A stretch of 4,065 nucleotides of DNA, from the IMG/VR virus record IMGVR_UViG_2695420822_000018; one strand, written 5' to 3'. Within the stretch, counting starts at the first letter, position 1, and each line of letters starts with the position of its first letter. Below the pieces are notes generated by a model, which saw only the letters and a list, made by a program, of their open reading frames with translations, searched no databases and was not told the origin of the DNA. Of this stretch, positions 1-1,198 are shown one piece after another. This stretch comes from a virus. Lineage: Duplodnaviria > Heunggongvirae > Uroviricota > Caudoviricetes. A program made the position numbers and the translations under genes.

Positions 1-341
1 CAAAGTGATCTACTATTCCGCGCAGCTATTTAGGAGTAGAGCGATAACGTGTTTTAATTCTGTCTCGTTCATTTTACTCACCTGAACACGCCACATACCA
101 GAGATTCGTTGTTGCCAAGATCGATAGTATTCATGTTGACCCCATTTCCCCTTAACGCCGGGTGGCGGAACGTTTTATCTACTGCGCTTTGTATCAATCA
201 ACAACTGCCGTCATGTTCGTATGCCTCAGGCTGGCTACTTAGCCCTGTTCAGTGACTGGATAACTCGAGGTATTGTCCTGCCGTTCTCTGGTGGGGCGTT
301 GTTTGGATATGCTTATTAAACACAATTTGTTTTCTTGTGTC

Positions 342-356
342 AACACGCAATGTGTT
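342..356. promoter_or_regulatory. Candidate distal operator AACAC-gcaa-TGTGTT, same arms as the palindrome at 917-931
   Basis: Seen in sequence: 5+4+6 inverted repeat with arms identical to the 917-931 site, inside a cluster of ACACA/TGTGT half-sites (319-356). Function is inference. Confidence 0.3.
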
Positions 357-385: not shown

Positions 386-409
386 AAAAAAGCCCGCTGA
401 TAGCGGGCT
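386..409 (-). terminator. Rho-independent terminator downstream of the repressor gene
   Basis: Seen in sequence: stem GCCCGC (392-397), loop tgata, stem GCGGGC (403-408), flanked by A6 on the plus strand (386-391), which is a U6 tail on the minus-strand transcript. It lies about 30 nt past the repressor stop codon (440-442). Confidence 0.6.
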
Positions 410-439: not shown

Positions 440-859
440 TTATTCCGGTGGGGGATTATCTTTAATCCTGCCTCTCAAATATTTTTCTACATACTCATCG
501 ATTTCTTTTAGCCGGACTTCAAATAGCTCAATCATTCGTTGTTGTTCTGAGCCCGGTAGCTGGTTAAACAACTCAAGAAGTTTTCGTTGGGATTCATTTA
601 ACCACAATTCAGAAGATTCCTGTTCTCCAAAGAGGAGCTCAGGAGGAGATATGCCAAGTGCCTTTCCCAATACGACAGCGTCATGTACTCCAACATTTCT
701 GCTGCCCGCCTCATAGTTACCTATACGCGATTGCGTCCATCCGCAGATTTCAGCAAGTTTTCCTTGAGATAAACCAAGCTTCTGCCTGCGCTCTTTAAGA
801 CGCATTGCAATTTTGTCATTGAGCCTACTAGCGGCAATTTTTTCGTTTTCTTTTTCCAT
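440..859 (-). CDS. Prophage repressor, HTH XRE family, DicA/CI-like, 139 aa, with no LexA-like S24 peptidase domain
   Basis: ATG at 859-857 preceded by AAGGA; stop TAA at 442-440. N-terminal HTH (LGLSQGKLAEICGWTQSRIGNYEAGSR). The C-terminal motif LLELFNQLPGSEQ resembles the DicA motif LELLELFNALPESEQ as I recall it. Divergent to a Cro-like gene, the classic immunity layout. Confidence 0.85.
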   Translation of the reverse strand: MEKENEKIAASRLNDKIAMRLKERRQKLGLSQGKLAEICGWTQSRIGNYEAGSRNVGVHDAVVLGKALGISPPELLFGEQESSELWLNESQRKLLELFNQLPGSEQQRMIELFEVRLKEIDEYVEKYLRGRIKDNPPPE

Positions 860-870
860 TGCATCCTTGT

Positions 871-885
871 ATCACGAATCGTGAT
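871..885. promoter_or_regulatory. Perfect palindrome ATCACGA-a-TCGTGAT, candidate operator next to the repressor start
   Basis: Seen in sequence: 7+1+7 inverted repeat 12 bp upstream of the repressor ATG (859). Operator role is inference. Confidence 0.4.
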
Positions 886-916
886 TTACATAAAACACAA
901 AACAGCTTGGCTATAT

Positions 917-931
917 AACACAAGGTGTGTT
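917..931. promoter_or_regulatory. Perfect palindrome AACAC-aagg-TGTGTT (AACACA-agg-TGTGTT), candidate operator over the rightward promoter
   Basis: Seen in sequence: inverted repeat lying between the candidate -35 (TTGGCT) and -10 of the Cro-like gene promoter. A second copy of the same arms is at 342-356. Confidence 0.4.
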
Positions 932-955
932 TAAAATTGTCATCGGAGGTTTTCA

Positions 956-1198
956 ATGAACAAAATTTCAACATATCGAAAACAGCTTGGGCTGTCTCAA
1001 AGACAACTTGCTGTTCAGTTAGGGTGGATACAAAGCCGACTGGCAAATTACGAAGCAAATTTTCGTACCCCTGGACTAGAGGAGTGCAGAAAAATTGTTT
1101 CTACCCTTAATCGGCTTGGCGCTCATTGTGGACTTGACGATGTATTCCCCCCAGACGGTAAGCATAGCGAAAACAGCATAGGAGCGGTTGATTCATGA
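956..1198 (+). CDS. Cro-like HTH XRE transcriptional regulator, 80 aa
   Basis: ATG at 956 with GGAGG 6 nt upstream. The HTH segment LGLSQRQLAVQLGWIQSRLANYEA is near-identical in pattern to the repressor HTH. The stop TGA (1196-1198) overlaps the ATG (1195-1197) of the next gene as ATGA. Confidence 0.8.
   Translation: MNKISTYRKQLGLSQRQLAVQLGWIQSRLANYEANFRTPGLEECRKIVSTLNRLGAHCGLDDVFPPDGKHSENSIGAVDS

Follow-up and report, generated by a model that had tools for sequence, protein, structure and literature searches.

A 4,065-nt stretch of DNA from a tailed phage (Caudoviricetes; IMG/VR record IMGVR_UViG_2695420822_000018), hereafter referred to as the window, carries an operator-like palindrome between a leftward repressor gene and a rightward cro-like gene, and a second copy of it past the other end of the repressor gene, within positions 319–356. 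The question raised by this locus is what the second copy does. A preliminary description, made from the sequence alone, had proposed that the two copies bracket the repressor gene in the manner of the left and right operators (OL and OR) of lambda, and this proposal is supported by promoter geometry, by operator arms that are invariant among near-identical loci, and by outer operator bases that co-vary with the recognition helix of the repressor. Region 319–356 is most probably the left operator and left promoter (OL/PL) of a Rac/Qin-type prophage, where a DicA-like repressor would act by promoter occlusion.

The strings on which the preliminary description was built were all recovered where it had placed them, namely AACACGCAATGTGTT at 342–356, AACACAAGGTGTGTT at 917–931, AACACAA at 319–325 and TTGTGT at 335–340. 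The two palindromes are separated by 575 bp, centre to centre, and share the symmetric 15-bp form AACAC-N5-GTGTT, which has exactly two matches in the window and none in 200 dinucleotide-preserving shuffles. Thus, the second copy beyond the repressor gene is real, with two exact copies found and 0 expected. A relaxed search with AWCAC-N5-GTGWT, allowing at most one mismatch, returned four sites (319–333, 342–356, 871–885 and 917–931) against 0.43 expected. The motif is not scattered at similar density over the prophage, as the exact form occurs only at these two positions in 49.9 kb spanning the entire related prophage of Escherichia coli VL40 and its flanks, and a one-mismatch search of the same 49.9 kb adds just the equivalent of 319–333. 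Each of 80 related IMG/VR loci also has exactly two exact copies, 574–587 bp apart. A chance match or a functionless relic would accord with the truncation of the first downstream gene in the window, but this reading is extremely improbable given that no match is expected by chance, that across 66 loci the arms never vary although the bases around them do, and that the same architecture is found in phages isolated as particles (Chris1 and pAEv1818).

Sequence comparison identifies the window as part of a lambdoid E. coli prophage of the Rac/Qin type, covering its immunity and early-replication functions. Over bases 31–1330, it is 99.7% identical to a prophage located beside ttcA, the Rac attachment site, in strain VL40, and about 150 complete E. 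coli genomes carry at least 80% of this stretch. The early genes of the VL40 prophage are ordered intR, xisR, recE-type, Rha-family, DUF1391, repressor, cro-like, ydaT, ydaU and dnaC-like, followed downstream by a complete lambda-like late gene set. The divergent repressor (440–859, minus strand) and cro-like (956–1198, plus strand) genes, with a multi-site candidate operator between them, follow the lambdoid plan; in VL40, the cro-like gene is annotated as a helix-turn-helix (HTH) transcriptional regulator and ydaT comes next.

When read on the minus strand from 356 to 315, the region runs AACACATTGCGTGTT-GACACAAG-AAAACAAATTGTGTT-TAAT, within which a leftward promoter can be placed together with two sites, OL1 and OL2, whose centres are 23 bp apart (Table 1). 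OL2 occupies the promoter spacer and reaches 2 bp into the -10 hexamer. The right promoter (PR) is built alike, with one site overlapping the -35 hexamer by 2 bp, another overlapping the -10 hexamer by 2 bp, and neighbouring sites 23 bp apart; OR2 lies at this distance from both OR1 and OR3. The order of strong and weak sites is swapped, the strong one lying on the -35 hexamer at PL and on the -10 hexamer at PR. Between the repressor gene and PL sits the intrinsic terminator of the former, which is conserved in relatives, with one compensated variant. Searched against Rfam, neither the window nor a canonical relative showed a known RNA family at OL or in the leader that follows PL; the sole match, to the trp leader at 384–470, reflects a terminator-type resemblance.

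Table 1. Features of the OL/PL and OR/PR regions, ordered by position in the window, with the leader element of relatives in the last row.
Feature	Position	Strand	Remarks
First PL-operon gene, truncated (DUF1391/ydfA-like)	78–134	-	From alignment to VL40
PL transcript leader	135–308	-	From the approximate start site to the first gene
Proposed PL -10 hexamer	315–320	-	TTTAAT, 17-nt spacer; assignment ±2 bp
OL2	319–333		AACACAATTTGTTTT = AACAC-AATTT-GTTTT (+ strand), 9/10 arm bases; weaker site
Proposed PL -35 hexamer	338–343	-	TTGACA, perfect; read from sequence
OL1	342–356		Perfect 15-bp AACAC-GCAAT-GTGTT; 2-bp overlap with PL -35 hexamer
Intrinsic terminator of repressor gene	391–409	-	Terminator scan: 8 pairs, then T run
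Repressor gene	440–859	-	139 aa; N-terminal HTH_3 and short helical C-terminal domain
OR3	871–885		Perfect palindrome ATCAC-GAATC-GTGAT, 12 bp from repressor start codon
OR2	894–908		Degenerate AACAC-AAAAC-AGCTT; 2-bp overlap with PR -35 hexamer
Proposed PR	907–935	+	TTGGCT (TTGACC in most relatives), 17-nt spacer, TTTAAA; read from sequence and relatives
OR1	917–931		Perfect AACAC-AAGGT-GTGTT in PR spacer; 2-bp overlap with -10 hexamer
cro-like gene	956–1198	+	80 aa; Pfam HTH_3, E = 6.7e-10
64-nt leader element (relatives)	L003 3049–3112; L006 3008–3071; L089 ~4053–4117; L092–L211		Downstream of their PL promoters

For the assessment of natural variation, a scan of viral contigs yielded the 80 loci mentioned above, comprising 65 with a repressor 97–100% identical to that of the window and 15 at about 84%. 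The former (L008–L072) were aligned with the window to give 66 sequences with repressors at least 97% identical. The 40 arm positions of OL1, OR1, OR3 and the good arms of OL2 and OR2 included 0 polymorphic ones (nucleotide diversity, pi, 0). By comparison, 13 of the 25 positions in the 5-bp site centres (pi 0.121) and 18 of the 24 in the 8-bp stretches between sites (pi 0.115) were polymorphic, which amounts to 31/49 for both together, as were 17 of 56 four-fold degenerate sites in the repressor gene (pi 0.037) and 12 of 32 in the cro-like gene (pi 0.052). In OL1, all 10 arm bases are invariant and four of the five centre bases are polymorphic. The strong arm of OL2 is invariant and its weak arm almost so (pi 0.03); in OR2, the AACAC arm is invariant and the opposite arm variable; and the arms of OR3 are invariant, with outer bases that, in all relatives, are systematically unlike those of OR1. 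The -10 hexamer of PL does not vary at all in this set, and the TTGAC of the -35 hexamer is retained in almost all of the 80 loci and in more distant relatives, with variable bases right after it. This pattern reads as a natural footprint, in which the fixed bases are those that an HTH dimer of the 434/P22 type would be predicted to contact, the others being free to vary.

The same alignment bears on the cluster of half-sites that had been described next to OL1. AACACAA holds up as the strong arm of the 15-bp site at 319–333. TTGTGT at 335–340 does not: it runs across part of the -35 hexamer into the beginning of the promoter spacer, and positions 335, 336 and 337 are polymorphic among near-identical relatives, the last being split 36 to 30. 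A reading of ACACAA-N9-TTGTGT (320–340) as a 21-bp palindrome was likewise rejected, given the polymorphic TTGTGT and the 15-bp site shown by relatives at 319–333.

The frequent substitutions at site centres also weigh on the reading of 315–333 and 342–360 as one long inverted repeat that forms an RNA or DNA hairpin, be it an attenuator, a terminator or a cruciform. A repeat finder does report arms that are 74% complementary with 8 nt between them, but such complementarity simply follows from two similar palindromes lying side by side. The centre substitutions are not compensated between the arms, the stem would be AT-rich and lacks a T run, and transcription from PL likely starts downstream of the region, which would thus be outside the leftward RNA. 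The hairpin was rejected on the lack of compensatory change, and we regard it as very unlikely.

As a separate observation, haplotype diversity peaks locally at the two operator regions. Among the 66 loci, 25 haplotypes were counted in the 38-bp OL and 21 in the 61-bp OR, compared with 21 in the whole 420-bp repressor gene and 1–11 in 38-bp windows away from both operator regions. Non-arm operator positions had a pi of 0.118 vs 0.042 at four-fold sites (about 2.8-fold; Mann–Whitney p ~1e-4), and several operator columns (327, 328, 335 and 348) hold three or four alleles. This variability may stem from neutral drift at the sole bases free of constraint, from selection acting on operator strength, or from a mutation rate that is raised locally.

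More distant homologues of the repressor (57–65% identical), from Citrobacter, Enterobacter, Citrobacter phage Chris1, Aeromonas phage pAEv1818 and vB_Apl-pPE4, all keep the plan of three sites upstream of the repressor gene and a terminator after it, followed by a PL unit with two or three sites, 23 bp apart, over an outward-pointing TTGAC promoter. The position of OL1 is occupied in the Salmonella-type, Citrobacter, Enterobacter, pAEv1818 and pPE4 relatives as well, and equivalents of OL2 are found 23 bp from it in L003 (AACACATTTAGAGTT), L006 (GACACAAGATGTGTC) and pAEv1818 (GACACGTATCGTGTC). The relatives have TATAAT or TAATAT 1–2 bp beyond the position of the PL -10 hexamer in the window. 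Across this set, the outer operator bases change jointly at OL and OR, and with the recognition helix of the repressor. Thus, at OL and OR alike, helix QSRIGNYE goes with AACAC/GTGTT, ASRVGNYE with GACAC/GTGTC, and SSRIANYE with (C/T)TCAC/GTGAG, and in L007, where an unrelated N-terminal domain is joined to the same C-terminal domain, both operators have TAAG-N7-CTTA. Together, the invariant arms and this co-variation support binding of the repressor at both OL and OR.

The mosaic structure of pPE4 (L090, 3990–4300) points the same way. Its PL leader and cro-distal flank are nearly identical to those of the window, and its repressor is 62% identical, with operators of the (C/T)TCAC type. As pPE4 shares the leader but neither the operators nor the repressor, the mosaic joint falls exactly at the -10 hexamer of PL, and OL would have been inherited with the repressor module. 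This phage was deposited as an Actinobacillus phage, an odd host given its E. coli-like sequence.

Instead of the 139-aa repressor, the main ligand of the conserved sites might be the 80-aa cro-like protein or some other factor. The cro-like protein likewise belongs to HTH_3, lambdoid Cro proteins bind the operators of the repressor, and in prophage CP-933P both PaaR2 and YdaS protect one region (PMC8630535). It is with the recognition helix of the 139-aa protein, however, that the outer operator bases co-vary. Moreover, an orphan homologue from Raoultella sp. BIGb0138 (L005, 2420–2470; 59% identical) has two AACAC-type sites, 23 bp apart, before its own gene, at a locus that lacks a cro gene, a terminator-PL-OL unit and phage-like neighbours. 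Because this orphan keeps AACAC-type sites in the absence of cro and PL, it points to the repressor rather than Cro as their ligand, and recognition mainly by the cro-like protein or a further factor appears quite improbable.

The repressor itself was examined by domain, sequence and structure searches. Pfam assigned it to HTH families only (HTH_3, E = 4.6e-13) and did not find an S24 peptidase domain in its 139 residues; because that domain is absent, the present system does not belong to the self-cleaving CI class. BLASTP aligned 129 residues of the protein with DicA of prophage Qin at 29% identity (E = 2e-15), the C-terminal LF-x-LP-x-EQ motif being part of the alignment, and the family alignment and a structure model revealed further DicA-like traits, namely HTH_3 followed by a helical C-terminal domain of about 50 residues with the motif LF-x-LP-x-EQ ... 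RLKE. The model (monomer; predicted local distance difference test score, pLDDT, 85) shows a five-helix HTH domain and then a helical hairpin, in the place where self-cleaving repressors of the CI/LexA type have the beta-rich S24 fold. The modelled HTH domain superposes on C.AhdI, P22 c2 and the 434 repressor at about 1.1–1.4 Å. Sequence and fold searches of the PDB matched this domain only and gave no convincing match for the C-terminal one; an alignment with SinR was long and poor, with a root-mean-square deviation (rmsd) of 7.8 Å, and was not accepted as evidence. The hairpin corresponds to residues 89–133 (window 461–595) and reads LLELFNQLP-SEQ-RMI-LF-RLKEIDEYVEKYLRGR. It is better conserved than the DNA-binding domain and is joined to unrelated N-terminal domains in repressors of other immunity types (L007, L106 and L210), as expected of a shared oligomerisation surface, a partner-binding module or the target of an antirepressor.

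From these data, the following mechanism is proposed. Dimers of the 139-aa repressor would bind OL1, the strong site at the upstream edge of the -35 hexamer, and OL2, the weak site extending from the spacer to the -10 hexamer, and their occupancy would keep RNA polymerase off PL, so that the early-left operon stays silent. The PL transcript would comprise a long conserved leader, the ydfA-like DUF1391 gene and the early-left operon, which in the intact prophage includes a Rha-family regulator as well as recombination and excision genes. The same repressor on OR1 and OR2 would silence PR. OR3, whose outer bases differ from those of OR1 in every relative, is placed to regulate the promoter of the repressor gene itself and is likely preferred by the cro-like protein. 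Because the repressor lacks a self-cleavage domain, its inactivation on induction would presumably require an antirepressor, as it does in Qin and the Gifsy phages. Proteins of the Rha, KilA-N and ORF6N families are annotated in the prophage.

Several points weigh against this assignment of OL/PL. A consensus promoter scan of the window called neither PL nor PR, because both -10 hexamers (TTTAAT and TTTAAA) lack the consensus A at position 2; the two promoters were retained despite the scan on the strength of their conservation and geometry, and the position of the PL -10 hexamer is uncertain to about 2 bp. More generally, we infer binding, promoter activity, repression and the induction route from sites, spacing, conservation and co-variation. 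Conservation alone cannot name the main ligand, as the cro-like protein may share the sites. Finally, in comparison with VL40, whose intact DUF1391 protein matches PF07151 with E = 5.8e-29, the window has a 95-bp deletion at 85/86 that leaves the DUF1391 gene with 18 codons, and its first 30 bases likewise depart from the VL40 sequence. Because this deletion cuts the first gene of the PL operon, the copy of the prophage in the window may be decayed in part.

Promoter occlusion at PL might be accompanied by DNA looping, in which oligomers of the repressor bound at OL and OR contact each other and loop out about 575 bp with the repressor gene, for tighter repression of PR and feedback on the repressor's own promoter, as in lambda. 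Each cluster pairs a strong with a weak site, which is the layout of lambda for cooperative binding and octamers, and the C-terminal domain outconserves the DNA-binding domain and is common to repressors with unrelated N-terminal domains. PaaR2, which is likened to the present repressor by its position in CP-933P only, forms octamers in solution (PMC8630535). The distance from OL1 to OR1, however, is 574, 575, 576, 578 or 579 bp among near-identical loci, 585–587 bp in the 84% group and 510–560 bp in distant relatives. Because this spacing varies over 510–587 bp, helical phase is not kept, which speaks weakly against a phase-dependent loop. On balance, looping is possible but doubtful. The more elaborate proposal that DicA-type oligomers form a loop of about 575 bp around the repressor gene, with the non-contacted bases under diversifying selection and the immunity specificity fixed, seems to us rather unlikely; if it held, diversifying selection would tune operator strength, cooperativity or loop stability in each lineage.

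The leader that would follow PL is unusually conserved in the window (pi 0.015 vs 0.04 at four-fold sites). In the Citrobacter, Enterobacter and pAEv1818 relatives, a conserved element of about 64 nt, GUCAUCGAGGCAGGAAGCCCACGAAGUAGCUGCCGGCGGCAUACGAAACACCGGAUGAGAUGAC, lies some 20–25 nt after the -10 hexamer of PL. It was found in at least 120 viral contigs and in 52 deposited phages (including SfV, SfII, ST64B, mEp237 and SPN3UB), which among them have many unrelated operator types. Its closing stem covaries (GUCAUC/GAUGAC, GCGAA/UUCGC and CCACC/GGUGG), with five of six pairs changed on both sides, 89% of cells paired and a covariation score of 0.41 compared with at most 0.12 in slid controls. 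The element has no match in Rfam and may be a cis-acting leader or antiterminator RNA. A covariance model, R1, was built from it, describing an RNA of about 64 nt with the covarying closing stem and the core AAGUAGC...GGCAUACGAA.

The leader of the window shares the blocks AAGTAGC, GGCATACGAA, GCGCAG and ACGTTCCGCC..GGCG with those of distant relatives. Searched with R1, it gave no significant match even with filters off, only the GGCAUACGAA loop aligning, and its minimum free energy was no better than that of shuffles (z = 0.06). With short blocks in common and no R1 match, its membership in the canonical leader-RNA family was rejected. In the window leader, CAACAAC/GTTGTTG might form a closing stem, and a palindrome, GGACAATACCTCGAGTTATCC, is inserted. 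The 64-nt element was also compared with putL of HK022, yielding neither a convincing alignment to the HK022 PL region nor a match of R1 there, so identity with HK022 put was rejected; the two are alike only in position (right after PL), in size (about 70 nt) and in the lack of an N gene. The first gene of the PL operon has a small hairpin immediately ahead of its ribosome-binding site (window 152–164, minus strand), which is shared even with Qin (L002, ~1975–1990). It takes the form CGCC-ACC-CGGCG in the window, CGCCA-GCC-TGGCG in Citrobacter/Enterobacter (L003, L006) and CGTC-GGCCA-GACG in L094, and its variation looks compensatory.

Beyond the cro-like gene, the window is composite, with runs of N at 1332–1336 and 2249–2259, a single N at 2053 and duplicated segments (1189–1331 = 1626–1767; 1938–2052 = 2044–2158 = 2260–2374). 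Between the N runs, the 5' end of ydaT and a segment from its 3' part recur as duplicates or variant versions, which looks as though different alleles, or prophage copies collapsed in assembly, were joined end to end. The first N run is followed, at 1421–1648, by a second cro gene, which is of a different immunity type (75 aa; Pfam P22_Cro, E = 3e-13) and has control sequences of its own upstream, namely a TTGACT hexamer at 1366–1371 and two TTAG-N6-CTAA palindromes at 1346–1359 and 1397–1410. The inverted repeat TTGATT-N6-AATCAA is recognised by YdaT of CP-933P (PMC9986795). A search for such sites near OL found none, the sole good match being TTGATTCATGAAAATCAG at the cro/ydaT junction (1188–1205), which is one base off, spans the cro stop and ydaT start codons, and has a duplicated copy at 1625–1642.

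The repressor is encoded in about 150 complete E. coli genomes and has close relatives in prophages of Salmonella, Citrobacter, Enterobacter and Klebsiella, and public databases name it merely "helix-turn-helix domain-containing protein". The present analysis assigns to it the operator AACAC-N5-GTGTT and a full set of five candidate sites. As a consequence, the immunity groups of these prophages would be predictable from sequence and the protein-contacted bases readable directly from natural variation. Further, the AACAC, GACAC and (C/T)TCAC variants with their own recognition helices would represent ready-made, possibly orthogonal repressor-operator pairs.

With regard to known systems, the preliminary description had invoked lambda and 186-type phages. 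The lambda OL/OR plan stands; the likeness to phage 186 is loose, and the DicA/dicBp pair of Qin and the PaaR2/PL933P pair of CP-933P are closer. Lambda shares the divergent repressor/cro pair with a three-part operator between, a second operator cluster past the repressor gene over an outward-pointing promoter, and adjacent sites 23–24 bp apart with a strong one beside a weak one. In contrast, the present repressor has no S24 self-cleavage domain and its mRNA has a Shine–Dalgarno sequence rather than being leaderless, OL has two recognisable sites instead of three, OL and OR are 575 bp apart instead of 2.4 kb, and both the rex genes and an N gene are missing.

The 434 and P22 c2 repressors have the same N-terminal fold (Foldseek probability 1.0, rmsd ~1.1–1.4 Å over ~63 residues) and bind short palindromic sites through the outer bases and not the centre, as is predicted for the present system. 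In 434 and P22, the non-contacted operator centre tunes affinity. The differences are an identity of only about 30%, an unrelated C-terminal domain and an operator of 15 bp (5-5-5) here, not 14 or 18 bp.

In CP-933P of E. coli O157:H7, PaaR2 and YdaS regulate PL933P, which has OL1–3 (PMC8630535). Both systems encode a short CI-like regulator that lacks a cleavage domain and, ahead of ydaT, a cro analogue; both also have a PL analogue with PR-like operators, at which repression was established by reporter assays in CP-933P (PMC8630535) and is predicted here. PaaR2 forms octamers, and looping has been proposed there as well (PMC8630535). CP-933P differs in carrying a toxin-antitoxin pair between paaR2 and PL, in having 18-bp repeats of another sequence as its operators, and in its cro analogue, which is of the YdaS family rather than a plain HTH_3 protein. 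Likened by description, the Gifsy-type phages of Salmonella have in common a short lambdoid repressor without a cleavage site and an expected inactivation by antirepressor (PMC10448788).

The parallel with Qin extends to the downstream promoter. There, DicA represses dicBp, which lies just downstream of dicA and upstream of ydfA, and operators are present at both dicCp and dicBp (PMC10448788, PMC3441716); it has been shown to bind Oc, TTGTTAGTCATAACTAACAA (PMC3441716), and the K-12 sequence has an Oc-related site in the dicBp spacer. Dependence of induction on an antirepressor is documented for DicA/Rem of Qin as well as for the Gifsy phages (PMC10448788). Qin and the present prophage share a homologous repressor of the same length class without a cleavage domain, the order of cro-like gene, repressor and a downstream promoter driving DUF1391 (ydfA), which is intact in VL40, and an operator within the spacer of that promoter (PMC10448788). 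Oc, however, is TTGTTAGT-CATA-ACTAACAA (PMC3441716), whereas the present operator is AACAC-N5-GTGTT; therefore, the two prophages would be heteroimmune, and the present repressor, by its sequence, is a member of the DicA family with a predicted different specificity and immunity type. Other differences are a leader of about 170 nt vs about 70 nt in Qin, and the location of the present prophage at the Rac site (ttcA) with replication genes of the ydaT/ydaU type. Overall, the arrangement is the textbook OL/OR plan of lambda, which will not surprise phage biologists, found here in a widespread and little-studied E. coli prophage.

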